A stretch of 64,000 bases of DNA, from contig NC_043006.1 in the NCBI RefSeq assembly GCF_006345805.1, forward strand, positions 82,646,001 to 82,710,000, written 5' to 3'. The stretch's first letter is position 1; each line of letters begins with the position of its first letter. Of the stretch, positions 2,551 through 61,732 are shown piece by piece. The stretch is from Octopus sinensis. Lineage: Eukaryota. Made by a program: the position numbers and the translations under genes. Below the pieces are notes generated by a model. It was not told the origin of the DNA. It did no database searches and saw only the letters and a program-made list of their open reading frames with translations.

Positions 2551-2994
2551 TATAAAACTAGTTTTAAGTCTCTGACTGAAACCTATGTAGTACAATACTG
2601 AATAGTAAAGTATTAGCTAATATAACGTGGCAGTCCTTAATAGAGCTATGTTATTACTTTTTAACGCAAGGGAAACGTCTTTTCTAGCTGGTTTATAAGA
2701 GATTTAAAACTCATTTTTTTTCGCCTTACGAGATCAGCGTTGACAGTTGCTTCGATAAGTATATATATTGTGAATAAGGTTGGCTGGGTACTGTCTCTAG
2801 CCAGGCGGTTGTCCAGAACAAGAAGGGAAATTACCCAGAAACCATTGATCTACTGGTACCACCAACTGCTAGAAGGCAGTAGTAGGCCCCCTTATTTGCA
2901 ATATATCTCGGACATAAATCACGTGTCGATAAACGAAGTAACATTGTCCTATTCAGGACTGCCACGTTATGTTGGCTAATATATATAATATTAT

Positions 2995-6391: not shown

Positions 6392-8020
6392 TTTGTAGTT
6401 TCAGCTCAGAGCTCTGGACATTCTGATGCACACTGCTACACTCTTATTACTGAGAGCCTCCTCCAATATGTGGCACTTGGTGAAGAATAGAGTTTGATGT
6501 AGCTACCCTCATTTGCACCTCTTGCCGTGAGGTCGGTTCATCTGGGAGTCTCGACATGAAGAGGTCCAGCCTTGATTTAAAAACGCCTACATCTACCTTG
6601 TGCAGGGTCCCCAGGCTCTTTGGGAGAATATAAAAAAGCTGTAGGGCTTCTGTGCAGTAACTGGTCCTGAGGCGCGATGACATTGCTGAGATCTTTGGCA
6701 CTATGCAGTATCGACCAATTCTGGCATTGGTGTAGCTTTCAATGCCAAAATTTGGCGCAATTCCTTCCAGGATCTTCCAGATGTATATTACTGCACACCT
6801 CTTCCGTCTTCGCTCCAGGGAGTAGAGTCTTAGCTGTTTCAACCTTTCCCAGTATCTGAGCTGTTGGAAAGAGACGATCTTCTTTGTGAATCTTCTCTTG
6901 ATTGCTTCAAGGTCAGCTGTTAATCTCACACTGGTGGGTGACCATAGCTGTGAGCAGTAATCCAGGCGGCTGAGGACGAATGTCCGCCAGAGGACCATCA
7001 TGGTTTTCTTATCTTTGGTTCTGAATGTTCTTAGGATCCATCCAGCCAGTCGTCTGCATTTTGTCGCCATCCTAGTAATGTGCACTTGGAAAGAGGTATC
7101 ATCATTCATGTTGATGCCCAGATCCCTCACTGATTTAGGCACTGGGATTGTAAACTCATGTGGACCAGTGTACTCTGGGATTTTACTATTCAGTTTTGGA
7201 TGCTGGTAGCGCAGGGCTTGGAATTTTTCAGCTTTATACTGCATATCATTATCCTCAGCCCATCTGTAAATTGAGTCCAACTCTTGCAGATGTGCAATAT
7301 CGCTGGGGTTCTGCATTTTCTGCGAGACTTTCGTATCGTCTGCGTAGCTAGCAAGGGTGGCTATCCGGGTAGTTGAGGGCATATCTGAGAGGGCCACTAT
7401 GAAAAGCAGTGGTCCCAAGACAGTGCCCTGTTGAACACCGCTCACTATTTGTGTTTTCATTGAAGTGGCTCCATTGCCCACTACTGCCTGACTTCTATTT
7501 TTTACGAAGTCATGTATCCACTCTCCAAGTTTTCCAGCTATGCCAAGGTCACGCAGTTGGTGGCATATCATACCATGATCCACTTTGTCAAAAGCTTTTG
7601 CAAAATCAACGTATATTACGTTCACATTTGAGTCGTTGAGTAACTGCCTCAGCACCTAGTCATAATGTTGTAAGAGCTGGGTTAGGCAGCTCCTACCTGG
7701 TCGAAGTTATTTTCTTCAAGGAATGCGATTAGTTTCCCTCTGACTATCCGTTCCATGACTTTGCTGATGTGTGAAGTCAGAGAGATAGGCCTATAGTTTT
7801 TGGCATCTGCTCTGCTTCCCTCTTTATGGATTGGGCATATTATTCCCTCCTTCAGCTTGCTTGGCAATCTGCCATTTGCATAAAAGCCTTGGAAGAGAAT
7901 CTGGAGGGGTTCTACCAGGGCACACTTACCTGATTTGAGGAGGATTGCTGGGAAACCATCAGACCCAGTAGTTGAGTTTGCGTCCACCTCATCTATGGCT
8001 AGTAGTATATCTTCATTGTT
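6392..8020 (-). mobile_element. 5'-truncated CR1/L2-group LINE, reverse transcriptase pseudogene
   Basis: ORFs 7682-7987 and 6447-7655: NYRPISLTS, YVDFAKAFDKVDH, SGVQQGTVLGP, YADDT; close relative of 59700-61730. Confidence 0.93.
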
Positions 8021-9665: not shown

Positions 9666-10183
9666 TGTACCTCGGAAAAACTAATTTATGCCATTACCTG
9701 CTTAGGGTGCGGTAATCACCCTAAGCAGTGATTTAACAACATCGACACTCTGCACGCACGATGGTAACATGCTCAAGTAACAAAACATTATATAAAAAAA
9801 TGCACGTATGATACATAGCTTGGGAGCAGCGCTACGGATATGTCAACACAAATAAGCTCAAGATATGACTACCCTCACGCACTTCTCATGAGGAATTTCG
9901 GAAGGAACTTCGTGAGACCACTACAGGAACGCTTCCGACAGACTTAGAAAACCGGCTATAACAGTAATTCCATTACTTCCTAGCAATATCTGAAGAAGGA
10001 ACTTTTATATTCCGAAATATTATATTAGATTATGAATAATTAAACTATTTATAACAGTTATCATAGTACACTCAGCATTGTTGTGGCATTCTAGATATGT
10101 TACATTTCACAGACAATACACAATGCTTCCAGCGTACTACAATACCCTCTTACATACACACACACACACACACACAACACACA

Positions 10184-11297: not shown

Positions 11298-11614
11298 CAT
11301 TGTGTCTGGGAGAGCCATTCTGTTTTAATGCCTTATTAATTAACACACTCACCAGTTCGATTTCCACTCATTTACTTATTTATTTTTCCTATAATTTAAT
11401 TTTCCTATAATATATATATATATATATATATGAATAAATAAATGGAGTTTAACGCAGGTGTAATCAAATATTTTTACTTTCGACACATGTTTCGAAACTT
11501 CCACTGATACTATTCAAAAGAATAAATGGTATAAACAATGCAATCTTCTCCTGAGGAGAAGATTGCAAATATTATTTTTTCCGTGTTAATTGTTAACAAG
11601 GTAAAAATACACTC

Positions 11615-11617
<3 letters not shown>
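10928..11617. repeat. Tandem duplication with period about 369 bp
   Basis: 10928-11248 repeated nearly identically at 11297-11617. Confidence 0.92.
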
Positions 11618-11662
<45 letters not shown>

Positions 11663-11665
11663 TAT

Positions 11666-13549
11666 ATGGGCTAGTGAATCTGTACCTGAGGACTGGAGAG
11701 ATGCAGTAATGGTGGTCCTGTATAAGAGAAAGGGCAACAGGAATGATTGTGGTAATTATAGGGGAGTATCATTGCTGTCTGCTGTAGGAAAGGTTTTATG
11801 CAGGATACTTCTGGATCATCTGCTGAAATACATTGCAGATTGTGTTCTTCCAGAAAGTCAATCTGGATTTCGTGTGGGACGTGGCACTGCTGATATGATC
11901 TTTTCAGCTAGACAGCTTCAGGAAAAGTGTGTGAAACAGGGTCTGGATTTGTATCAGGTTTTTGTCGATCTGACAAAAGCCTTTGATACCATCAATAGAA
12001 AAGCATTGTGGAAAGTCCTCCAGAAACTTGGGTGTCCTGAAAAGTTCCTTGCTTTGGTTCGGTCTTTTCATGAAGGCATGTTAGGGGGAAAATGTCGGAG
12101 CCCATTTCAATACAAAATGGAGTGAAACAGAGGGATATTCTGGCACCGACCCTATTTTCCATATATTTCGCGAAGGTGTTCTGTATTGCATTCAGAAACT
12201 GCAGATACGGTGTTTACGTTCATTATCGAACTTCTGGCAGCATATTTAATATCAGGCGCCTTGCTGCAAAAACAAAGGTATTTACCTCTATCATAAGAGA
12301 CCTTTTGTATGCAGATGATTGTGAGCTAGTAGCACACACAGAGATTGATATGCAACACATTTTGAATGCATTCTCTGATGCTTGCACTGTCTTAGGATTG
12401 ACAGTCAATCTCAAGAAAACTGTTGTCATGCATCAACCTGACCCTGGTAAGCAGTATAGTGTACCAAATATCTATGTGTATGGTAAACGACTTGATGTAG
12501 TTGATCAGTTTGTCTACCTGGGAAGCACTATTAATAGATATGGCAATTTGGATAATGAAATTCCATATAGAATTAGGAAAGCAAGTGTTGCTTTCGGAAG
12601 GCTAGAAAAGCGCCTCTGAAGTCGGCGAGACATATGCAGAAAGACAAAGATAAAGGTGTACAAGGCATGTGTGCTCCCTTCTCTTCTCTATGCTTGCGAG
12701 ACGTGGGTCACATATCGATACCACCTTAAACAACATGAACGTTTCCATCAGATGTGCCTCAGATGGATCTATGGCATTAAGTGGAAGGACCGCATCAGTG
12801 ATCTTGAAATATCGGAAGGCTCTCGGTGTGAAAGTATAGAAGCTCTTGTGTTAAAGCAAACGCTCAGATGGAGTGGTCATCTGGTCAGGATGAAGGATTC
12901 AAGGATGCCAAAACAATTCTTTTATGGAGAGTTAGCTAAAGGAGAACGAACTCCACATAAACCAAAAAAGAGGTATAAGGACTTGCTGAAGGCTTCCTTA
13001 AGAGATGCTTGCATCTCTCCTGACACATGGGAAGGCATAGCTATTGATCGTAGCAGGTGGAGAAGGATTGTGCATGAGGGGACAACCACTTTGAGAAATC
13101 TCGAGTTGCACATGAGAAAGTAAGGAGGGATGTCAGGAAGGGCATCGCTGTTACACTTCCAGAAGGGAAGTGTCTTCCTTTCATGCTGACATGCAATGTC
13201 TGTGCAAGACCCTGCCTCAGTAAAGCTGGACTCAAGAGTCATCTTCGTAGTCATAAAACGAGACAGATGAGTGACAACCTGGCCACTGGTGGTGGTGTAA
13301 CACACCATACTAATCATATCTGCCAGGCATGTGGAAGAGAGTGTAATTCGGCAGGAGGAATTAAACGACATGCAAAGGTACATGAAGTCCAGTTACAACT
13401 ACAGTCGGCTATTACCAGTAAAGGTTTTAGTTGCCAATTTTGTACAAGACATTGTAGATCTTTGGCTGGGCTAATAAGTCACATTCGATCACAGCACCAG
13501 TAACAGTTAAGCTTCGTGCAATGGCCATACTCGATAACGAGGGGCAGCC

Positions 13550-19214: not shown

Positions 19215-20276
19215 GTAATATTCTTTCATTCCTTTATCTTTTACACGTTCTTCGTTAAATATATTACAAGAAACCTTTCAATGGTAATCAGCTGGTTTTC
19301 ATGTGTTTTAAAACTAATGATATTGAGAACAACACGAACATCTTAAGACTCTTCTCTTATCTATTTGCTATTCCTGCAGTGCTTTAAATCATTGTTGGTT
19401 GTTCTGATTTCTAAGACTACCTTTGGTTCTTCTGCTTTTGAAGACTCTATGATTTCCAAAATTTAAACTTGCATAAATTTTTCTGATTTTGAAGTTTTCA
19501 TATATTCTATATTTCTTTATTTTTCTTAATTTTAAGGGCTTCGTAAATTTTCCTACTTTTAACACATGCATTTACTGCTCTTGTAAATTTTCGTCTCTTT
19601 GCTTGTACCTTCTCTATCACTACTATTACTCATTAATACATTATCATTGTATCCATGGCATTCCATTATATTTTGGGGGCATGCTGTCTTTAAATTTAAG
19701 ATTTGAAGTTTGGGATTTCTCCACTCGAAGGAAGTTTAGGAAATTGTGTGTAGAAGAATTTGTCTGCTTCATTGAGCAAGTCAAGTTATTATTCTGAAGC
19801 TCTTTTGTCAAAGGAAATGGAACATGGTAGATAAGTACGTGTGTTTCGCCACTATATTGAACCAAGCGAGTTTTGATTGTTAGGATCTGTGATTTTTTAC
19901 CCATTAGTTGCCCAGGACTTAACAACAGCATCAACAAGTATTTTTATGATCCAAGACTGGCTCCTCTATGTGACCGTTCAACTTGCAAGAAATAGCACCA
20001 AATTGTACCCCCAAAACACCTCACTGCCTTCAAAGGCAAAAGATGCACTGGATAATCTTGTCCGATATTTACTATTACTTAGGTTAGTCATGAATTCTGG
20101 GACTCATAAAGGCAGAGAGCTTAAACTGGTTTCAAAGGTTTGCAAATAAGTGAAAATACAACGGTGGTATACTGTCAATTTAACGTGACAGTAGGAAGCA
20201 TCGACGCCTCCTGATGGCTTCGACACATTTTTTCCTGTGTCCTTATATATTTACGAAGGGGAGACAAATACCCCCA

Positions 20277-20360
20277 GCAGCCAGGCCTGCATCTACAGAC
20301 ACGCATGTTTCAGGATCTTTCTCCATCATCGGTCTAGAGTAGCAGAAGCCCGCCAGCCGC
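20277..20360 (-). ncRNA. Type I hammerhead ribozyme, U4C variant, extended stem I
   Basis: Reverse complement of 23276-23359. Confidence 0.7.
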
Positions 20361-20689
20361 AGATGAAATCTTTATTACGATCATGCGATTTTACATAAAA
20401 TTGGACATTACAAGACAAACAATTACAGAGAATGTTATGAGAGTTCGAATGATACTTGAAAATTATAAAAATTTAATTATAATGTAACATGAACGAAAAC
20501 TTGGCTTACTTTTGCCTTTATAACGAGAACTTTAGTGCGTGTTATTTATTTATTTTTTTTTTTTAAGCAAAAAAAAATCATTAGACATTATAACATATGT
20601 AAAATGAAAAGGAATGGGAAGTGCCGGTTTCGAATTTTGAACCCGGCAGCCTATAAAGCCCAGCAACTAATTTTTCCTTTCTTCGATGA

Positions 20690-21493
20690 TTAAGCTGGGT
20701 TACTAACACCCACCTTTCTCATCACATCCTTCCAACGTTTCATATACTCTTTCTGTGGCAGGATCCTCTTCTCCAACCTCATCTTGCTCTTCAGATGATA
20801 TCTGAAGTATTTTAACAAACCGGGGTCATAGACAAAGGACCCTGTCACTAGACCTTCCATTCTGGTTCTCCACACACACTCTTTCAGTACTGCCACCGTA
20901 CAGTAAAAACAAGCCTTACCTTTCTTTGAGAGTCCAGTTGGCGGTATCATCTTTATCATAGATTCAGCCGACAGCTGTACTCGTCCCAGATGCGACAACA
21001 CGTGTTCAACGTAACTTATCAACCTTGACAGCTCCCGACATTGTACAAAAGTGTGTTGAATGGTTTCATCGTCCAACCCAGGTCTTGGACACGTCGGTGG
21101 CACTGACATTCCGTGCCTGGATAACTTATCGCGAACAGGTAATGCATTCCTATAGCACTGCCAGGTCAGGGATTTTTGGTAATTGTCCAAATACCCCGAC
21201 CTGAAAGTCTTCTTAAACAGGTTGGAGAGTTGGTTCTCATCGAACCCCAGAGCCCCTCCTAGGACGTTGTCATTTTTTGCCTCTACCAGCCCTCTATAGA
21301 ACATCGAGATGGTATTCCCGCTGCCGGCCTTGCCCACCTTGTGGATCAGCCAGAGTGCCTGTCGGCACTCCTTCTGCCATAAAGTCAGGTTACGTCTTTT
21401 AATGAAACCGGGTTTAAATCTCTCCATAGAGGCCTGTAGTTCACTCGCAGCCAGGCCTTTGCCTGCTGCTCCCGCATAAGTTTGGGCTTGCAT
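20690..21493 (-). CDS. Open 267-aa ORF fusing an ORF1-like N-terminus to an L1/Tx1 ORF2 C-terminal (zf-RVT-like) domain; no RT or endonuclease
   Basis: MQAQTYAGAAGK start; WQCYRNALPVRDKL...CPRP...ETIQHTFVQC...W..R; homologous to 40500-41290. Confidence 0.7.
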   Translation of the reverse strand: MQAQTYAGAAGKGLAASELQASMERFKPGFIKRRNLTLWQKECRQALWLIHKVGKAGSGNTISMFYRGLVEAKNDNVLGGALGFDENQLSNLFKKTFRSGYLDNYQKSLTWQCYRNALPVRDKLSRHGMSVPPTCPRPGLDDETIQHTFVQCRELSRLISYVEHVLSHLGRVQLSAESMIKMIPPTGLSKKGKACFYCTVAVLKECVWRTRMEGLVTGSFVYDPGLLKYFRYHLKSKMRLEKRILPQKEYMKRWKDVMRKVGVSNPA

Positions 21494-21784
21494 ACCCAAC
21501 AAAAACTCCAACAATTCACCGGGCCATAACAACTTCCAACAACAAAATCCAACTTCCAACCGCAATGCACAATAACCGTAATACAAAATAACCGACACAA
21601 ACACTGCCCGCCAGCCGCTGATGAATCTTTATTATAGGCACAATGGCCCGAATGAAGAGGGGACAAAAAGGATGGTATGACAATGAAATATTTATAATGA
21701 ATTAAATGGAATGGCTTACGAGCCCCCCAAAGCTCGCAGTTTCATTTACAATTACAATTGTGCTATCCGGGGCGTTCATCCGTA

Positions 21785-23092
21785 CTACAGTTGGAAGAAA
21801 TAGTTATCGAGAAGGAGAGTTTGAGGAAGTACTACGACAGCTTCAAGAAGGAAGGTGATTGTCTGAGGGTCACACCACCTGAAGACGAGGTGAAAGAAGC
21901 TGGGAAGAGAATTATAACGTACAGAACGTGGAGTGTGGTTTCGAAGAGAATAGAAGTAGCAGAGGTGGAAGAAATCGAGAAGTGTCTACAGGAAATTAAA
22001 GGAAAAACTACCTTCTACAATAGAGGTAGAAAATACGCGACAGTAGACGTTCGTTTTGAAAACGAAGACGAAGCGAAAAGAAACGCCACGACAGTATTGA
22101 AATCCGAAAAATGGGTGTTACTACCTAGCTATTGTGGAAAAAGAGCAGTGAGAATACGGATTAGTAAAATTTTACCGGAACTGGACACGGAAAGAATTGT
22201 AGCGGCAATAATATTCAACTGCAAAGAGAGCGTCGACATACTGAAGGTAGAAAAGTCGAAAGAAATAAATTGGTGGGGTTATGCGGTGCAGGCTTTGGTT
22301 CAAATAACCATGCCAGACCTGTATAACATCCCAGAGGAGTTGGTGTTCCCCGACGAGACACGTCTCAGAGTCGTGGTGGAGGGGAGACCCCCAGTGTGTT
22401 ACAAATGTAAAAGTAGAGGCCACATGAAGGATATGTATCCGCTAATAGAAGAACAAGAGAAAACGATAATACTGGAGGCTTTGACAGAGGAGTTACAAAA
22501 GGCGAATGTGGAATTGCAAGCGGAAGAGGAAATCGTGACTACAGATAATGTGGAAAGTGGTGACGAGTTGGTGAAGGAGAAAGAAAAGGAAAGAACAGAA
22601 GAAAAAGAGGATAGAAAGAGAACGCGGGTGGAATCACCACCCAAAGCACAAAAAAAGAAAAAAGCTAAAAAGAAGTCTACCGACGAGATAGAGGATCGAA
22701 CGCACGAAGAGAGAGATACAGAAACGAAAGTGAGTGAAGTTTCAATGTGGGAGGAAGAGAAAGAATGGGAAAGAAAAATGGAAGAACAACTGAAAATATG
22801 TAAGGAAGGATGAAGGCCAAAAGGAAGAAATCTCAAAGCTATAATGTTGTACAAAAAGGACAAAGAAATTGAGAAGAAATTAGCGAATATGAAAAATCTA
22901 ACTAGAGTAAAACTGAACCCGAAGATATTCGATGACCAAATAAAGGCGGCAATTGTAGAAAGAGAGACAGTAATGAAATTAATAAATGTGTATTCAAATA
23001 TAGCTGTAGGCGTAATGCAATACATTCGATATGACAGTTTGCCATGTGTTATAGAACAGGAGGATTACATTACGGATGAACGCCCCGGATAG
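21785..23092 (+). pseudogene. Tx1/L1-like ORF1 (RRM-like region, zinc knuckle, acidic/basic tail), 5'-truncated, one in-frame TGA at 22811
   Basis: RGRKYATVDVRF, RVVVEGRPPVCYKCKSRGHMKDMY (CCHC with last C changed to Y); ORFs 21758-22813 and 22844-23092 share a frame; followed directly by 3' UTR and AATAAA. Confidence 0.8.
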
Positions 23093-23275
23093 CACAATTG
23101 TAATTGTAAATGAAACTGCGAGCTTTGCGGGGCTTGTAAGCCATTCCATTTAATTCATTATAAATATTTCATTGTCATACCATCCTTTTTGTATTTTTGT
23201 TATATGTACCCCATGTCCTGTATTATTATGTCCCCTCTTCATTCGGGCCATTGTGCCTATAATAAAGATTCATCT

Positions 23276-23359
23276 GCGGCTGGCGGGCTTCTGCTACTCT
23301 AGACCGATGATGGAGAAAGATCCTGAAACATGCGTGTCTGTAGATGCAGGCCTGGCTGC
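23276..23359 (+). ncRNA. Type I hammerhead ribozyme, U4C variant, extended stem I
   Basis: tctaga-CCGAUGA-tgga gaaaga tcct-GAAA-catgcgtg-UC-tgtaga; stem I continues ctgc/gcag, gggc/gcct, gcggct/ggctgc; GUC triplet, predicted cut after 23338. Confidence 0.72.
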
Positions 23360-24288
23360 TGGGGGTATTTGTCTCCCCTTCGTAAATATATAAGGACACA
23401 GGAAAAAATGTGTCGAAACCATCAGGAGGCGTCGATGCTTCCTAGGGCTAAACAGCGGTGGTGTAATCCCCTGCTGTCACGTTAAATTGACAGTATACAA
23501 CCATTCTATCGCTCCACCACCGTACATATCTCTATGAGATATTTAGAAATTTAATATTTCTGAAAATACAACATTGTCTCTGAATGGGTTGTCAGTCTGC
23601 CATAGAGTTAACTTTCCAGATATTGTTGGAAATCATTTACAGCTGAGTGAACTGAAACAATGTCAAATAAAACGTTTTACTAAAGAACATAATGTACCAC
23701 CTGGTGTGGGTATCGAAGCCACAATCTTTAAATTGCGAATGCAACACTTTTGCCTTCACTGTAGTTCCCATATCCTATTTTGTCCCGATATAAAAGAAGT
23801 GCTACAGCAATTATTCTGCTCAATACTATAAATTTGCTTGTCAGTTGCTTGACCATAGCCAGTTGAGCATGTCCCTTAGTGGCTGACGATATGTGCATCT
23901 CTGATCGCGAGCAGAAGTAGTGGGGGAGCATCATAGTCATGTGTTGAGAGGAATTCTTTGGGGTTTGAATAATTCACCCCTGGAAACATGGGATTTTTTA
24001 CCATCATCCTTAAACAAACCTTATTCAGGGATCTTTTGAGTAGGATGGGCTACTCAACCTGAAGAAAATTCTAACTGGGTTCCACATGCAACGTTGTGCG
24101 CTATTTATCTTGACATGAGATCACTATGTCGTGCACATATGCTTGTAATGCATGTGCCTGGTGTACCCTTTTCAGACGGGTAGCCATGATGGGTATATTT
24201 GGCTTTGTATATTTGTATCTCTGTGTCACTTTGATGGCATGAAATGCTCTCTTACTCAATAATAATAATAATAATAATTATTATTATG

Positions 24289-38682: not shown

Positions 38683-39845
38683 TAGATAAACTTAGATATG
38701 TTTCGATCACAGATTGGTCCAGGCCATGTCTAACTTAATAGCACCACTTGATAGGATTATTTGAATCCTGTTTAAGTCAAGTTTTGTTTATGGTCCATTC
38801 AAGTAGTGAGTTTTTGTTGGGTGAGTTGTATTCAATCATGGGTGGCTTATCTGGTATTCCTTGAAGGAATCTATCCAGACTCCGTTTAAAGTTGATGGGA
38901 TCCTTTTCCTCTTTGATCACTTTCGGGACAATGTTAAATAGGGCAGGGCCTGTTGAGGAAAAGAAATTATGTTGCAGTCTACATGTATGCTGTGATCTTG
39001 AATTGGGCAGGGGACGTATGGACCGTGGTCCCAGTCTTGGATGAACCTTGAAGCTAATGATCAGGTCATTTGGGCAAAGTTGGCGGTATATTCTCCACAT
39101 CGTACAAATGATATACTGCTCACGGTGACGCTGGAGAGAGTAGAGTTTCAAGGCTTTAAGGCGATCCCAATAATCGAGAGCAGCCACGCCTTCAATTCGT
39201 TTAGTGAGTGCCCTCTGGGGTGATTCAATCCTCGAGATGTTTTGTCTTGTATGGGGAGACCACAGTGGGCAGCAGTATTCGAGGTGTGGCCGTACAAAGG
39301 AGGAGAAAAGTGGTATGATGACACCTTGTTCTCTGAACCGGAAAGTTCTTAAGATCCAGGAACTCATCCTACGAGCTATATCGACCTTATTGTTGATGTG
39401 TGCACTCCAACTGAGATCGTCATCAACAATTACACCCAGGTCTCTGATATTGTTAGAGGCTGTGAGCGGTTCCCCTGAAGGAAGAGAGTATGGCTGTTTT
39501 AGTGAGGAATTTCTTTCAAAATGTATCAGCTCAAATTTTCCCTCGTTCAGTTGCATTTTGTTTCTGTCTGCCCATTGACTCACAGCATATAGATCAGACT
39601 GGAGTTGAGTTCGGTCTGCTTCTTCATTGACGACTTGCTGGAGCTTAGTGTCATCAGCAAATATTTTCATTTTGCAGTAATGTACGACACTGGAAAGGTC
39701 GTTTATTTAAATTATGAAGAGTAGCGGGCCCAAGACAGTCCCCTGGGGGACACCGCTGGTGAGTTTTGCTGGGCTTGAGTGGACTCCATCAACTACAACA
39801 TGTGTTCTATTAGCCAGGAAATACTTAATCCAGTGTAGAACTTTT
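38680..39845 (-). mobile_element. CR1/L2-group LINE 3' half
   Basis: SGVPQGTVLGP, IFADDTK, RDLGVIVD, VRPHLEYC. Confidence 0.93.
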
Positions 39846-40279: not shown

Positions 40280-41510
40280 AACCCAGGCCTAGTCTGAGCG
40301 GTGGTTATCCCTGAAAGGGAGGGCAGAGCTCGCAAGTGTGTTTATCGCATCTGTGATCACTTACCACCTAACCGTCGTACCTTGCCCCGTGGCCAGCAAG
40401 TTGGAACGATGCTCTTTCGCTTTTTGGGGAAAGGCAGAGGGCCGCTTGTAAGGCGCTTAATCTGCTGCCAACACCAGCTAAAGGGTGGGCTAGAGATACC
40501 ATGGCTGTTAATGCACAGAGGCTGAGTCATCTTTGGCTCTACCTGGATGGTGAGCGGGTGTCGTCTCTGTTCGTCAAGCTGATACTTCTCCGATTCACTA
40601 GTTTCATTGAATCAGAGCCTTGGATCAAGCGTAGACCTAAGTTGGGAGCGTGGAAGGCCGAATATCTGCAGCCTCTCGCACGTCTCTCCCGGACGACTAA
40701 TGCCGGTGGCGAGATTTCCATTTCATCATTCTACAGAGGGTTAGTAGAGGCCAAGTATGACGATGGCCTGGGGAAACCCTTGGCTTCGACGATAGTCAGC
40801 TTGCGGGAAGTGGCTTTGGATAACTTCCAAAGATCACTGGCTTGGCAATGTTACCGAAGAACCTTACCAGTTCAAGATTAACTCGCAAGGAATGGCTCTT
40901 CGTGCCAGCCCACTTGCCCAAGATGCAGGCAGAGCAGTGAGACTGTTCTGCACGCTATTGTGCAGTGTCCGAAACTATCAGAGTTGTGGGTTTATGTTGT
41001 CACATTTGGGAGGAGTACAGCTGTGCTCCGAGTCAATTATAAAATTGTTGCACCGTCCTCTCTGAAAGGGGAAGGGAAGGTTCTGTTTTCTCACTGTAGT
41101 AGCAATTGTGGAAGAGGTCGTATGGATATCTCGCATGAAAGTAGTAGTGACAGGCGACTATATCTCCAGCCGGTGGTTGGTAAACTGTTTGTTTCCCAAC
41201 TGAAAAGGAAAATAAGGTTGGAGAGGAGTCGCCTACGACTAAGTATATACGAGAAAAGATGGATGAAAGTGGCATACTTGTTGAGAATGTATGTAGCTTC
41301 TAAAGAGAGGACAAAAGGATTATTTAATGGTTCAGTAGTAGAACGTGGTCTGTGGGGTCAGCCACGTCCACCACTTCATCATAATCATTCGTTGTCATCA
41401 TTTTTTCTCAGATTTTTGAAATTTTTAATGTTCATTAAAAACGGAACGAATCACTCCGACCCTTTGTATGTCCCTCCTGTGTGCAACCCTTGTGGTCAAT
41501 TAAAACCAAT
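40280..41510 (+). mobile_element. Tx1/L1-like element: ORF2 C-terminal remnant and 3' UTR
   Basis: FYRGLVEAKYDD...LDNFQRSLAWQCYRRTLPV...CPRC...ETVLHAIVQC; homologous to 20690-21493. Confidence 0.8.
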
Positions 41511-41522
41511 TCGTGCCCTCTC

Positions 41523-42475
41523 ACTTTTTCGAGTTTGGCTGGTTTTTGCGATAAAGTTCTGTTTATTGTAATTGTTGAATTTTTGTTGAACTGCTTTTGT
41601 TATCGTGTTGTTAAAACACTTTGTTTGTTCTGCGCTGTTGCAGACACGCTGACATCCCCCTCCCTCACTTGTTTGAAGGGGGAAATACTCAATTGTGTTT
41701 TGTTAAAAAAAAATCGATGGTGATATTACTGGACGTGAGTTCAACTGACGTCGATTCCTCTAAAGAGGAATTGTCTGTGTGTTAAAATTTTGGATAAAAT
41801 AATACAGAAGGAAAACAACGACAATATGATTGAAGCAAAAAAGTAAGCAATTTCGCAGCGATGACTAGCCTCACCAACGAATATCGAAAGGAATTAACTT
41901 GATAAATTTAAAGGTCTTCTTCATAAGGAGGAGCGCGATCGAATTGACTAATTACAACTTCTCGAAAAACGGTGATTTTTAAAATCCTCTCTATGAAAAA
42001 CAAAAGGCTCGACATGGTGACGAAAGAAGAGCTGAAAATTGTGTCTGAGGCCTATCTGGAAAGATATAGTATATCTTGCCAGGGGCAAACGTTTTGCGAT
42101 GGTGGAAGTGCAGTTCTCATCCGAAGATGTTGCCAGGCAACACTCTACGACCCCGCTGAAAACTAATGAAGTGGTCTTCCTACTTACATACCTGAGTATA
42201 CGTACTTCCAAGGTTAAGGAAGGAGGATATTCCATCAGAGGTCGACGTTGCCTGACTGGTGGCGGCAATCACCTTAGGTTTAGAGGAAAAAATAATCCTC
42301 CAAGCAACCAAAATCAAACAGCAGAACTGGCAGGAACAGAGATTAGAAATGCTAATCGAGGCTGCCCCTGCGGACTTCGAGGAGATTGTTGACACAATAC
42401 TGGTGGGTGAAGACACCAAGCTAAGAGTTATGGTGGAGGGTAGAAAGCCTTGTTGTTTTAAGTGCGGACATTCAT
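41523..42475 (+). mobile_element. Tx1/L1-like element 5' end with decayed ORF1
   Basis: YLARGKRFAMVEVQF...KLRVMVEGRKPCCFKCGH; homologous to 21785-23092. Confidence 0.75.
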
Positions 42476-43519: not shown

Positions 43520-46090
43520 TGAAAGCAAAAATTTGAAGCCCCAAATGTCGCCAGATCAATCCAGCCAAATCCGAGATCGGTTTGGCGAGCAAACACATAT
43601 TAAGAGATATCAATAACAGCATAAGAAGACCCACCAACCTTTCCCTGTAACGCAGCACCAGCGAAGTGACCGCATGGTTTAACACCTACAAGGGAAGAGG
43701 CAAAGCAAGGTTCACCCAATTTGTTATAGTCGATCTTTACCCGTCTATATCAAAAGGGCTACTGACCAAGGCGCTTTCTTTCACTAGGGGCTTCGCCAGC
43801 ATTAGCGACAGAGATGTAGAAATTATCAAGACAGTGCTGTTCAACAAAGGTTCGGCATGGGTCAAGCAATCCGACCCTACGGGCTCCTTTGACGTAGCTA
43901 TGGGAGTCCACGACGGCGCTGTTGTATGCGATCTCATCGGGTTGTGTATTCTAGATAACCTTAGGAAAAAGTTCCTCTCTTCCGCTTTTTGCATCTACAG
44001 AGATGGCGCCCTGGCCATCTCTTAGACAGCAAGCGGGCATACACTAGGCAGGATTAAAAAAGACACTTAATCAGTACGCTTGCCTTCTTGAGATTGAAGA
44101 TCAGCATAAAGACCAACTTCACGTTCAACTTGGGCGCCGGTACTTACAGGCCCTATCGCAAACCAAACGAGAAGCTAACGTACATCAACATTGCCTCCTG
44201 CCACCCACCCATCCTGTTCAAGAACCTCGTAGAGGGTGTTTAGTAAGAAGATTACGAGCCTTTCCTCCAACCAAGAGGCTTTCGATGCAGCGGCCCCGTA
44301 CTATAACGAGGCCCTCGTTGACAACGGATTTAGGGACCGCATCACCTACATGCCAAAACCCAACAGCCGCAGAAATACCATTTAGTTTGCTTCCTCACCA
44401 CTTCTCCCTTAACACAATAACGTCCGTAAGTAGACTATTCCTTAAGTTAGTAGACAAGCATTTCACTAGCTCTCATAGGTACGGGCTCATCTTCAACAGG
44501 CACAACGTTAGGGTCTCGTTTAGCTGTGCCCCCAGTAGTAAGAGTATTGTAGTTAGTGCCCCTAAGCCACAGGAAGAGGCAGGTTGTTCATGCAGGGACC
44601 GCAACAGTTGCTCGACAGGAGGCTTCTGCGAACCCAAAGGGGTCGTCTATCAAGCCGAAGTATTAGTGAACCCTGGCAATACCACCGGCAGAAGTAATAG
44701 CAGCCAATAGATATGAGAACAGAACCAACAACACCACCACCATCGCCGCAGTTGACAGCATTAACAACGTTAGCAACAGCAGCATCACAGACAGCATTGG
44801 CAGTCCTCCCGTTGGCAGCATCACTAACAACAACAACAGCAGCATCACCACCAACACCAACCTTACCAATAACTTCTCTGACGTCCACAGTAGCAGACCT
44901 GAAATCCCCTATAGAAGCAGCAACAGATCCAGTGCCAACGTCAGCCGTAACGGCAGTAGCAGCAGTAGCAGCAGCAGCAGCAGTGGCCCTAGCAGAAGCA
45001 CCGGCGTAACCACGACTAATGTCACCCCTAGCAACAGTGGCAGCTCCCCCACCATTCGTGAAGACCGCAATAATAACAACAATAACAGCAATATTAACAA
45101 CAACAGCGCCTTAACCGTAACCGGCAGTGGCGGTAGCATTGCTGACGCCACCACTACCTCTAAGAACGTCAACACCAGCAGAGCCAGCCAGCTGAAACAT
45201 TCCGTGAGGAATAGGAATTGGAAGGATAGCTATTTCCAAACAACAGCAGCAACAGCGACAACAGGTGGAACATCGACAACACGCGCAGTGGCGATAATAT
45301 TACCGTCGTCACCACCACATTCAGCGACGCTAACACCAGCAGCCCCAGCTCCAGTAACAACAATAACAGCAGCAACAGCAGGAGGCGAAATGCCCCAGTG
45401 GTTAGGGCAGCGGACACGCGGTCGGAGGATCGCAGTTTCGATTCCCAGACCGGGCGTTGTGTGTGTTTATTGAGCGAAAACACCTAAAAGCCCCACGAGG
45501 CTCCGGCAGGGGGTGGTGGCGACTCCTGTTGTACTCTTTCGCTCCAACTTTCTCTCACTCTTTCTTCCTGTTTCTTGTCCTCGACTTCCTACGCAACCGC
45601 TGAGCCTTGATGCGCATTCATCCATCCGTCGATGCTCTCGGTGTCGGGGGTTGACCTGCTTTCTCTTCTGCGGGTCTTACGAATAGCAAAGGACCACGTT
45701 TCGGACTTCTCCCACTAATGGGACGAAGACCGCTTCGCTCAACAAACAAGCAGCAACAACAGCAACAAGTGCAGCACCGACAACATGCGCCTACGGAAAT
45801 GCATTGAATGTACTGGGAATTCTCTCAAGCAGCGTATCTCCAGCCATAGGTCCTCCTTCAGAGTTCTGGAAAGGAGGTACGTAACATCGCTGGCCAATCA
45901 CGTCTGGCAACTAAGAGACAATGGGATCTCATGGTCGATCTCATGGAAATTACTAGAGACCCCAGGCCCCTACATCAACGGGACGAAGCGTTGCAAGTTA
46001 TGCATAGCTGAACGCGCGAGCATCCTAAAAGATTCACTCGAACCAGGGAGCACCCCTAACTCCAGAACGGGGGTTTTAATTGTGTATTGA
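43520..46090 (+). mobile_element. Decayed Penelope-like element (Naiad-like RT plus GIY-YIG)
   Basis: DLYPSIS, FDVAMGVHDGAVVCDLIG, IYRDG; CSCRDRNSCSTGGFC..GVVYQAEV; LKQRISSHRSSF..TSLANHVWQL..RCKLCIAE. Confidence 0.85.
45381..45749 (+). mobile_element. tRNA-derived SINE nested in the PLE
   Basis: A-box-like cccagtggttaggg and B-box-like gtttcgattcc; (AACA)n tail; flanked by gcagcaaca repeats. Confidence 0.8.
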
Positions 46091-53420: not shown

Positions 53421-53860
53421 CGTTCACTAACATACTTGTTAGGATTGGTACTGTTGAGGGAGCTTGTAAAAGCTGGGTTTTTTCTCTCGTATTACATGGT
53501 GATGCACTTGGAAATCCAATGCAGTTGGAAATCCAATGCTAGATTTAATTGGAGGAAAGATCTATAGTGTATAGGACCTATTTCTTTTATCTCAAGGTAC
53601 AATTTAATATAATTTGCATATTTCAACTCTGTAACATTCTTCAACTTGGCATATATATCCTTTTTCCAGTGACGAAAAGTCACTGATCTCGAAAAAGGGT
53701 AAATGTGGCTAAACAGATAGATAGGTACATAGGTAATACGGACAAACAAGCACACACACGCATACACACACGCACACATACAAACTCATGAAAGTTACTG
53801 GAAAAAGGATATATATATATATTCATTTGGAACCTCGTCACATCAACCACCGGTGATTGT

Positions 53861-53904
53861 CACACGCTGATGACGGGTCAATATCCAGAAACTCGGTCCG
53901 TGTG
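53861..53904 (+). ncRNA. Canonical minimal type I hammerhead ribozyme
   Basis: cacacg-CUGAUGA-cgggt caat atcca-GAAA-ctcg-GUC-cgtgtg; followed by a PLE RT-like remnant (FIIEG.KFIQQNNFFNFNENIYRK, about 53985-54056). Confidence 0.88.
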
Positions 53905-54410
53905 TATAACGTCAGGTTGCAGATGAGAAGGATGGCTTCCCATTGCAAATACTGATAGGGCACCACCCTTAAAGTTTAGCCACATTCATCATTGAGGGAC
54001 CAAAATTCATCCAACAGAATAACTTTTTTAACTTCAATGAGAACATTTACAGAAAAAAATCTGTAAGTTTATAAAGCTAGTAATTTTTAGTGGTGTGTTT
54101 GGGTAAACTGACCATTCATCACAATGATATAAAATTACAACCTTAATATATAATTCAACGAGTGGTCAAACTAAGAAGTTATTTATGACCACTACCATCT
54201 CATCCAAGACAACATCCTTTTCCAGCTCTATAGTATTTTATCTCTTTATCTCTTATTCTACTTTATCATTTTATTTCTTTTGTTAAATTATTCCAATTTT
54301 GGTCAATCTTATATGTGTATCTAACTATATTATACTTATTAGAGTTAAACAATATTTATTAAAAAATAAATAAAATAATGATTTTTCTTATAGACGAAAC
54401 TCCATTAACT

Positions 54411-58204: not shown

Positions 58205-59700
<1,496 letters not shown>

Positions 59701-61732
59701 AAGTCCCGCCTGAAAATAAAACTGTTGGAAATTGAAAATTGTCTGCAACTCTCCCATGAGAAGGAAAGAGCAGACAAAGAAGCCTGGGCTATAGACAACA
59801 TAAAAACTAACCCCAGAGCTTTCTACAGGTATGCCAAAGAAACAGCTACGGTGCACTGTAGGATAGGGCCACTCCTTGAAAAGGATGGCACACTCACAGG
59901 AAAACCAATGAGGGTAAGTGAAATACTGAATGAACAATTCAAGAGTGTTTTCACTCCACCCCTTGAGCATTTCCAAATCAGCAATCCAACTGACTTTTTT
60001 ACCACTGCAGATATAGAATCAGGGGGCGGCGACGATAAATTACATCGATATAAAGGAAGACGATGTAATAAAGGCTATAGATGAAATGAAAACAGACTCA
60101 GCTATTGGCCCCGATGGATTCCCGGCAATCCTCCTAAAAGTATGTAAGAGAGTCCTAGCAAGACCACTGCAGTTCCTCTTTCAGAGCTTCCTTGCAGCTG
60201 GCAAACTTCCAAGAAAACTGAAGGAAGGTAAAATATGCCCTATTCATAAAGGAGGTAGCAGAGCGGAGGCCAAGAACTACAGACCTATCTCTCTGACCTC
60301 ACACATCAGCAAGGTCATGGAACGAATAGTCAGAAGGAAACTAATCACCTTCCTTGAAGAAAATGACTTGCAGCCTGACACCCAACATGGTTTCCGACCA
60401 GGAAGAAGCTGCTTAACTCAGCTCCTGCAGCACTATGACTGGGTGCTGAAACAACTGCTCAACCACTCAAATGTGGAAGTCATATATCTCGACTTCGCAA
60501 AGGCCTTCGATAAAGTCGATCATGAAATGATATGTCACAAACTGCGTGATCTTGGCATAGTTGGAAAACTAGGAGAATGGCTTCATGACTTTCTGAAGAA
60601 TAGAAGTCAGGTGGTAGCACGCAAATAGTGAGCGGTGTTCCGCAGGGCACTGTTTTGGGACCACTACTGTTCATAATGGCCCTCTCAGACATGCCCTCAG
60701 CCACGCAGAGAGCCACGATCACAAGTTATGCAGATGATACAAAAGTTTCACAGGCAATACAGAACCCTGAAGACACTAAGCACCTGCAATGTGAGCTGGA
60801 CGAAATATACAAGTGGGCTGAAAAGAATAGCATGCAGTTCAATGCTGAAAAGTTTCAAGCTTTATACTATCAGCATGCAAAACTGAATGCAATACACAAT
60901 GAATACACTGGACCCGGAGGGATTGCAATCCCAGAGGCACAATCAGTGCGTGACCTGGGTATTCACATGAGTGATGACGCGACCTTTCATGCACATGTTG
61001 CTAAACTGACAATGAAATGTAGACGGCTGGCTGGATGGATTCTTAGAACCTTTAGAACAAGAGAACAAGAAACCATGATGGTCCTCTGGAAGACACTTGT
61101 CCTAAGCCACTTTGACTATTGCTCTCAGCTATGGTCACCATCCAGTGTCAAGTTGATCACAGAACTTGAGGCGATCCAACGAAGCTACACGAAGAAGATA
61201 GCCTCTGTGCAGCATATGAGCTACTGGGAGAGACTCAAGAGATTAAAGCTCTATTCCATGGAGCGTAGGCGAGAAAGATATGCCATAATATATATCTGGA
61301 AGATCCTGGAAGGTCTTGTCCCAGACTTTGGCATCGAGAGTCACACAAATGCCAGAACCGGACGCCACTGCGTAGTACCAAGGACTCCAAATTTGCCATC
61401 AAGGTGTAGGACAAGATATTGTGATAGCCTGGGCTTCAGAGGCCCACGGCTCTTCAATATCCTCCCGAAGAACCTGAGGGACCTGCATGGTGTAGATGCG
61501 GATGTCTTTAAAGTAGGACTGGATCTCTTCCTGTCAGGTGTCCCGGATGAACCAACTTCACGGCAGGAGGTGCAGATGAGGGCAGCTGCATCGAACTCTC
61601 TCATGCATCAGATGGCGTTTGCTAAAAAGCATCCGTGAGGTAAAACCGTGTAGCAAACCAAATGGCGGTGCCCCAGCATGGCCACAGCTCATTAGCTGAA
61701 ACTGGAAAAATCAAAATCAAAATCAAAAATCA
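59701..61732 (+). mobile_element. 5'-truncated CR1/L2-group LINE with intact 3' end
   Basis: GPDGFP, NYRPISLTS, QHGFRPGRSC, YLDFAKAFD, SGVPQGTVLGP, YADDT; small deletion and frameshift near 60620; tail (AAAATC)n. Confidence 0.95.

Follow-up and report, generated by a model that had tools for sequence, protein, structure and literature searches.

Tx1-like retroelements with an insertion preference for a hammerhead-ribozyme repeat in the genome of Octopus sinensis

Within the Tx1 clade of long interspersed nuclear elements (LINEs), Mutsu is directed to 5S rRNA genes and Dewa to tRNA spacers. Other members target transposons: Xenopus Tx1L inserts into Tx1D, crocodilian Tx1-Mar into Mariner-N4_AMi, Tx1-9_AMi into a Harbinger element, and Tx1-8_Crp and Tx1-4_AMi into long terminal repeat (LTR) elements, and the unnamed "satellites" among the Tx1 targets in Fig. 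3 of the same paper might include ribozyme satellites (PMC4494074). Here, we analyzed a window of 64,000 nucleotides from Octopus sinensis (the whole stretch of assembly GCF_006345805.1, contig NC_043006.1, positions 82,646,001 to 82,710,000, forward strand), in which a composite locus at 20151-23572 joins two types of Tx1-like element, one autonomous and one with only open reading frame 1 (ORF1), to a repeat bearing a type I hammerhead ribozyme. Searches of the 2.72-Gb genome revealed a real, genome-wide insertion preference for this repeat. Very probably, a guild of Tx1-like LINEs, comprising autonomous lineages and several ORF1-only families, inserts by target-primed reverse transcription (TPRT) into the 5' arm of the long stem I of a hammerhead retrozyme, and filled repeats appear to be copied also by the repeat's own Penelope-type machinery.

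Like the transposon-targeting Tx1 elements, these are LINEs with APE and reverse transcriptase (RT) domains that prefer a set position in another repeat, stack in tandem, and share their target with non-autonomous passengers (PMC4494074). They differ in that the target is a hammerhead-bearing, retrozyme-type RNA element, that one position is used across subfamilies only 40-85% alike, that the passengers are ORF1-only, and that the host itself appears to retropose through RNA and to carry the insert. Target specificity within the Tx1 clade and precise 3' junctions are shared with Keno, which targets U2 small nuclear RNA (snRNA), and with Mutsu, Dewa, Kibi, and Koshi (PMC4494074, PMC4640811); whereas those elements use conserved host genes or microsatellites, here a mobile repeat that evolves rapidly is used, with ~20 nt of variation in register. 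Tx1 elements that target other transposons are thus known, and a ribozyme repeat as a LINE target would be new: no LINE or Tx1 element with a hammerhead target was found in the literature searched, which lay outside subscription journals, Repbase Reports, and the supplements of PMC4494074 with the Tx1 target list. The first-pass annotation of the window had likewise known of none.

To quantify the preference, the 3' untranslated region (UTR) of each element type was searched alone, and the best 40 of 314 and the best 40 of 276 candidates were classified, excluding the window's own ends and L104, which has no 3' end. An end was scored as on target when the family hammerhead stood 19-36 nt after the terminal motif AATAAAGA, or when its duplication was followed by a tandem element or a damaged copy. 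By this definition, 55 of 80 ends share a homologous site, in the same orientation and 15-36 nt ahead of the ribozyme core: 32 of 42 ORF1-only ends (10 off target) and 23 of 38 autonomous ends (14 off target, one unclassified). L166, a tandem with a different duplication, is unclassified in this tally and is listed as on target in the Fisher test below. By simple arithmetic, chance would yield an on-target rate of at most about 4 in 10,000 even with 100,000 repeat copies, and both element types exceed the level at which target preference is recognized, that is, one sequence type in >20% of flanks (PMC4494074). The window's junction pattern had 12 exact matches, compared with none for the reversed control. 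Searching from the target side returned 28 filled junctions of target type C (three being neighboring duplicates) in seven 3'-UTR clusters, against none for the control, and all seven clusters contain Tx1-like ORF1 or ORF2 remains. The site-specific family envisaged by the first-pass annotation therefore survives as a preference for a homologous position and not as one family bound to one 20-mer, as at least four diverged target subfamilies are used and 24 of 80 ends are off target. One candidate, L159, matched the hammerhead regular expression, but its flanks are unrelated to the family and it was counted off target. Separately, both element types have inserted into another repeat, unrelated to the first, at nearly the same position (L114 and L113); the L114 site lies ~26 nt behind TATAAAA and is possibly a secondary target at a transcription start.

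The target resembles the animal non-LTR retrozymes, which combine a type I hammerhead with a unit of ~350-390 bp, as in mussel, no ORF, and a proposed Penelope-dependent mobility (PMC7229834; bioRxiv 10.64898/2026.07.22.740005). The best 40 of 1981 candidates for the hammerhead tail were scored and 30 loci were examined: 19 are empty with a common upstream flank ending in GGGACAGAT, as the first-pass annotation had anticipated, 10 carry an ORF1-only 3' end, and one an autonomous end. The exact empty-site pattern has 83 matches, with none for the control. Given these 83 empty sites and covariation in 14 of 16 base pairs, the tail is an independent retrozyme-type repeat of ~358 bp, and the hairpin-rich tail of ~160 nt described earlier proves to be only part of this monomer. 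The period of 358 nt is seen in head-to-tail continuation in L048 and L011; it falls within the 150-400 bp of non-coding, tandem, type I hammerhead units called non-LTR retrozymes and fits mollusc retrozymes in size (PMC7229834). Compared with animal retrozymes as described in the available text, copies here are mostly dispersed, 5'-truncated, and partially tandem or inverted; most are single or partial. No mention of LINE inserts in animal retrozymes was found in the available text of these sources, and Tx1 has 0 occurrences in that of bioRxiv 10.64898/2026.07.22.740005. The target falls into four subfamilies, A (ATCTGCAGCTGGCAG), B (TCAACCAGCAGG), C (ATCGAAAACCGGTG), and D (AGCGACGC), which are 40-85% identical over 110 nt. 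That both window arms end in the tail would also be expected if it were simply the elements' own 3' UTR; this is so improbable that it can be set aside, given the 83 matches above, 45 further empty-type matches of type C (among which at least two are 5' junctions belonging to filled copies), an empty copy within the window itself, and the same elements without the tail at off-target sites. The tail thus occurs alone, 55 of 80 insertions are on target rather than scattered at random, and duplications are found at many loci and not at this one only, which were the three points on which the first-pass annotation had staked its proposal.

The repeat also shares with Penelope-like elements and their pseudo-LTRs (pLTRs) a terminal-repeat hammerhead, partial tandems, and 3'-anchored, 5'-truncated insertions with inverted 5' copies (PMC8557442). 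Among the empty loci, 3' ends fall at monomer positions 231-239 in 18 of 29 and at 289-294 in 6 of 29 (24 of 29 at these two hot spots), 5' ends are variable, and an inverted partner is present in 16 of 29, some of these loci overlapping. The window's two arms end at ~241 and 292. Unlike in Penelope-like elements, no RT or GIY-YIG partner is linked to the hammerhead repeat among the examined loci. Inspection by eye upstream of the composite at L053 shows a Penelope-like ORF that ends in a GIY-YIG-like part, with a minimal hammerhead-like motif of another family behind it; this ORF is not the repeat's partner. A window remnant at 44048-44707 (+), which we take to resemble Penelope, has no Pfam match and has relatives in L152, L100, and L167.

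The ribozyme is present at 23271-23369 and 20267-20365, with cleavage predicted after 23338, and shows the type I hammerhead features (core C3-A9, G12-A15, and U16-H17; three helices; helix I open). As proposed in the first-pass annotation, the 20-mer TTCATCTGCGGCTGGCGGGC supplies the outer 5' strand of an extended stem I (fold z -2.43; 5 of 200 shuffles equally stable). The call rests on a purpose-made alignment and covariation rather than on Rfam, which at gathering and E-value thresholds gave no hammerhead match in the window and, on nine related loci, no hammerhead and simple-repeat microRNA noise only; in minimum-free-energy folds the catalytic core was not formed. The alignment holds 30 copies from all subfamilies, picked from 48 regular-expression matches plus the window copy. 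In it, 92.6% of cells are paired, compared with 24-50% in slid controls, and 14 of 16 pairs vary on both sides. The C3-G8 pair becomes U3-A8 in 2 of 30 copies, a covariation known to retain activity (PMC3088659). The core CTGATGA is found in 15 of 30 rows, and 20 of 30 have no pair at the base of stem II. The pairing pattern indicates selection on the hammerhead fold throughout the subfamilies. Three departures mark the window copy: U4C, a U-U at 10.1-11.1 (where stem II begins), and a single mismatch in stem I. U4C reduces hammerhead activity in vitro (PMC3088659), so the window ribozyme carries variants expected to weaken it; in the accessible retrozyme literature, a U-U at the base of helix II also occurs in axolotl HHR_Amex2. 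In two subfamily D copies (L116, L123), the core shows the compensatory U3-A8 pair and stem III is very short. A covariance model of the hammerhead, run on the 64-kb window only, weakly matched 2792-2880 (+) (E 0.0013, core broken), and a hammerhead-like motif at 9982 was found by regular expression only; these are probably a decayed copy or chance.

Evidence for repeated, independent insertion comes from the target duplications. Thirty-five on-target copies, plus L166, are preceded by the empty-site flank or by another element and carry a duplication, mostly of 14-21 bp, on both sides, and the duplication-flanked copies show 34 different 3' junction strings. Full APE-RT elements with target duplications and tandem stacking, both foreseen in the first-pass annotation, are among the insertions at the site. 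The duplication pairs are imperfect in L046, L116, L141, and L156; rare target variants are identical on both sides of one insert in L052, L158, and L173; and 5'-truncated copies keep both duplications in L120, L168, and L118 (two stacked). Target-site duplications, 5' truncation, and a fixed 3' end are thus found together, as in TPRT. A Terminon-like capture was considered as the origin and rejected, as the duplication pairs show insertion. The alternative of no targeting at all, in which one or a few ancient insertions, made by chance, spread solely through the Penelope-type mobility of the repeat, would accommodate 14 hitchhiking-like truncated on-target copies that lack an upstream duplication, the end duplication of the window composite, and the clustering of target labels on both trees (15 target-class changes on the ORF1-only tree, minimum 4, shuffled mean 23.3; 5 on the autonomous tree, minimum 3; one L124 end was left out of the tree). 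Yet the target is duplicated per subfamily, both duplication copies at each locus fitting the local subfamily; truncated and tandem copies bear duplications of their own; at least four target subfamilies and seven 3'-UTR clusters are involved; element lineages switch between target subfamilies, as the 15 changes on the ORF1-only tree show; and close element relatives sit in targets only 46-61% alike. This alternative is highly improbable and already largely refuted.

The features of the window locus are as follows.

20151-20162, plus strand: left copy of the 12-bp end duplication TGAAAATACAAC, which brackets the whole composite and has only two occurrences in the window.
20163-20364, minus strand: inverted arm, which covers positions 1 to ~241 of the hammerhead repeat monomer less a deletion of 29 nt; the hammerhead lies at 20267-20365; end at the 231-239 hot spot of empty copies.
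20348-20364, minus strand: 3' target-site copy behind the autonomous element.
20365-21437, minus strand: 3' 1070 nt of an autonomous Tx1-like element, with the ORF2 end and its zf-RVT (PF13966, E 5e-9), 3' UTR, AATAAA, and no poly(A); 94-95% to L047 and L051.
21434-21605, minus strand: 5' 172 nt of an ORF1-only element (5' UTR and first codons), inverted relative to its remainder, from comparison with intact copies.
21606-21622, minus strand: 17-nt target duplication between two tandem ORF1-only copies; identical 5' junction in L048.
21623-21784, minus strand: 3' end of another ORF1-only copy, shorter by ~39 nt than its plus-strand counterpart.
21785-23271, plus strand: main part of the ORF1-only (HAL1-like) element; its ORF1 has a weak CCHC knuckle and is broken by a stop at 22811-22813; 3' UTR ending in AATAAAGA-TTC.
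23272-23563, plus strand: positions 1-292 of the hammerhead repeat monomer, opening with the 17-nt 3' target copy; the core CCGATGA lies at 23304-23310, and cleavage is predicted after 23338; end at the 289-294 hot spot.
23561-23572, plus strand: right copy of TGAAAATACAAC, the second of only two in the window.
53790-53950, plus strand: empty type C target copy with the canonical CTGATGA core (model E 4e-15); its flank fits the 5' flank of the filled copy L130. It serves as a control for the empty site inside the window.

The composite proper (20163-23563) thus runs from an inverted repeat arm through an autonomous 3' end, an inverted 351-bp piece, and an ORF1-only body to a second repeat arm, the 351-bp piece consisting of the 5' end of one ORF1-only copy, the 17-nt duplication, and the 3' end of another. 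Several earlier readings hold: both 3' ends consist of AATAAAGA(T) followed by TTCATCTGCGGCTGGCGGGC, the 20-mers at 20348-20367 and 21606-21625 are 95% identical, and the two 3' UTRs do not align with each other. The proposal that these 20-mers bracket the minus unit as a target-site duplication needs amendment: they belong to two different insertions, and the duplicated target is the 17-nt ATCTGCGGCTGGCGGGC. TTC is counted as an element-side linker because empty sites read GGGACAGAT followed at the junction by ATCTGC. The minus-strand "fused ORF1-N/ORF2-C unit" was rejected as an element family and is a local chimera of an ORF1-only 5' end and an autonomous 3' end, as its 172 nt directly precede the sequence starting at 21785 in 8 of 8 full-length ORF1-only copies (L043, L045, L046, L048 twice, L050, L052, and L053). 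Six nucleotides, CTACAG, are common to both sides of the inversion break near 21434-21437. As the TGA of TGAAAATACAAC also fits the repeat's own end, the end duplication measures 9-12 bp. This duplication, the inverted arm, and the end positions suggest that the composite moved as one by Penelope- or retrozyme-type machinery, in line with the earlier view, and the locus appears to be a filled-repeat copy scrambled by inversion and template switch. The route may have been twin priming, template switch, or later inversion. A further chimera of the two element types, L161, has break points unlike the window's.

The autonomous elements are 5.36-5.58 kb at full length, with ORF1 followed by APE (PF03372, E 1e-11), RT (PF00078, E 1e-31), and zf-RVT (PF13966, E 3e-10) domains, the matches coming from pieces of different full-length copies; all copies examined are interrupted. 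The ORF1-only copies, at 1.60-1.68 kb, have one ORF, their own 5' and 3' ends, and target duplications. They are comparable to HAL1 (half-L1), being non-autonomous, limited to ORF1, and presumably mobilized in trans (PMC5753468). Their protein is only 26% identical to the autonomous ORF1 over 236 amino acids, so that, by sequence, the ORF1-only element is a HAL1-type passenger and not a recent deletion product. Unlike in HAL1, its ORF1 appears to be of Tx1 type with a weak CCHC knuckle, and it is site-preferring. For this knuckle in ORF1, PF00098 scores 20.3 and 19.3 bits, just below the 20.8 cut-off. The best-scoring named relatives of the autonomous element are a Tetraodon pol-like protein (266 bits) and Xenopus Tx1 ORF2 (245), against 175 for human L1 ORF2p. 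RT trees, one built on 54 and the other on 24 of 120 listed matches, place the element outside the L1-like clade (100/100), whose member P0098 scores 557 bits to human L1 ORF2p. The available text of an octopus repeat annotation reports L1-Tx1 families without ribozymes (PMC13282606). An off-target ORF1-only copy, L132/L235 (G000:C9:36472521-36472539, -), starts with 19 nt like the 5' end of a U1 snRNA gene (18 of 19), with Rfam RF00003 on 3 of 3 other loci; U1-derived 5' heads are also known from crocodilian Tx1-Mar (PMC4494074). Elsewhere in the window, 40372-41571 (+) is a remoter Tx1-like ORF2 3' remnant, 65% identical in DNA to 20766-21191 across 438 nt and with a zf-RVT match at E 1e-4; no hammerhead follows it. 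RT remnants at 6447-7655, 11535-13123, 38777-39706, and 59317-61638 are presumably other LINEs, CR1-like and RTE-like by their motifs; two of these four served as tree outgroups. Simple repeats and LINE remnants are also present.

How the site is found can be considered from the on-target junctions, where we observed the orientation, the position, the duplications, the lack of poly(A), and an AATAAA within about 10 nt of the junction. We propose that the element would be transcribed together with its host repeat, giving an RNA with a few target bases at both ends, whose 3' terminus would fall within the target owing to the AATAAA at the extreme 3' end. An endonuclease of low specificity would nick near (Y)ATC/AAC, and the read-through bases would pair with the nicked strand; the 5' target bases may help to complete full-length copies, filled repeats may also be copied by the repeat's own Penelope-type machinery, and the ribozyme would mark the target and may trim the RNA. 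Several junctions hint at such read-through into the target. The linker of 0-8 bases at the 3' junction varies with lineage, and linker bases recur at off-target sites resembling the donor's downstream target (L107, L163, L135, and L128); in L114, the 3' duplication has a donor-type base missing from the 5' copy. At the other end, L053 has, after its own duplication, GG followed by 15 nt that start at ATC and belong to another A-type variant, and L126 and L142 have similar donor-type extensions, which hints at transcripts starting in the upstream target. All subfamilies have an AT-rich box 20-30 nt upstream of the site, and it pairs in the RNA fold too. Intact 5' ends occur in 32 of 36 on-target copies versus 2 of 9 off target (p 2e-4, Fisher test, hand-compiled). 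A like dependence on flanking transcription was proposed by Kojima for Tx1-Mar passengers (PMC4494074). A sequencing-run search with the window stretch gave 20 rows from seven studies and four organisms holding part of the stretch (shares 0.20-0.50), with no RNA dataset listed.

A preference of the endonuclease for sequence or structure is the main rival to read-through, and the models are not mutually exclusive. Targeting purely at the DNA level, through a short motif, an extruded imperfect inverted repeat of ~55 bp, or a site opened by transcription initiation behind the AT-rich, TATA-like box, would leave read-through incidental; we regard this as possible, if unlikely. It accords with the ascription of Tx1 target choice mainly to the endonuclease (PMC4494074), with the position of the site within a long inverted repeat, and with the upstream box, to which off-target L114 behind its TATAAAA may be compared. 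Nevertheless, the duplicated sequences differ strongly between subfamilies with register shifts of up to 20 nt, the bases of the 3' linker change according to the target of the donor, no TATA box is apparent by eye at most other off-target sites, and, given its pairing in the RNA fold, conservation of the box need not mean a promoter.

The first-pass annotation had instead suggested that ribozyme cleavage makes the 3' end of the LINE RNA, which is possible as a model. In its full form, in which targeting depends on cleavage ~67 nt past the junction and flanking ribozymes give a unit-length RNA that may circularize, it is doubtful. The fold is under selection, the core and inner stem I remain intact downstream of every on-target insertion, poly(A) is found at no junction examined, and L048 has a ribozyme on both sides of the element. 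This locus (G000:C6:84704500-84714400) consists of two duplicated units with an ORF1-only element between complete hammerheads, from which double cleavage would free a unit-length RNA. On the other hand, among the insertions examined, none stops at the cleavage site and none has brought a 67-nt transduction with it to an off-target site, the window subfamily bears U4C, which lowers activity in vitro (PMC3088659), and the U-U at the base of stem II, and the AATAAA in every family offers an ordinary, simpler route to a 3' end. In R2, by comparison, the element encodes a restriction-like endonuclease and its own 5' ribozyme, whereas in octopus the ribozyme is part of the target, on the 3' side of the element. 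R2 in 28S rDNA is co-transcribed with its target and processed by a ribozyme (PMC4494074), and both may apply to the octopus elements as well.

Other findings weigh against TPRT by a targeted Tx1-like guild combined with carriage by the host repeat. Off-target ends number 24 of 80, nine with clear duplications, and with ~30% of ends off target the targeting is a preference and not strict specificity. The sample leans to lineages near the window's copies, and hitchhiking inflates the on-target counts: the 14 truncated copies without an upstream duplication are best read as copied with the host repeat. No convincing distal end duplications were seen in these 14, so the case for hitchhiking rests on the window locus and on structure. 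Donor-type 5' extensions occur in three copies only. An autonomous Penelope partner of the repeat (RT plus GIY-YIG) was not found by tblastn with four Penelope-like pieces against the examined loci, rather than the genome. Finally, the RT trees also place the element outside the Tx1L/Tetraodon clade (98/95) with a weakly supported base; we call the element "Tx1-like" because it lies outside both L1 proper and the Tx1L subclade.

These findings add a ribozyme-bearing RNA element to the list of LINE targets. The insert would also mark a likely transcription start in animal retrozymes, for whose promoters no descriptions were found, and, if carriage with the host is correctly inferred, retrozyme machinery would be able to carry kilobases of coding cargo. 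At its most far-reaching, and in our view rather unlikely, the guild might be a hyperparasite of a circular-RNA retrozyme, finding its site by RNA pairing or fold and not by a fixed DNA sequence, thereby tracking its host through 40-60% sequence change, and borrowing the host promoter, while flanking hammerheads would release a LINE RNA of unit length, possibly circular, whose two ends share homology with the target and which either RT system could copy. The four diverged targets, several element families, and on- and off-target copies form a natural series by which endonuclease specificity, RNA read-through pairing, and promoter capture may be separated. Thus, the system bears on how APE-type LINEs gain and shift their target preference and may be of use for targeted insertion tools.

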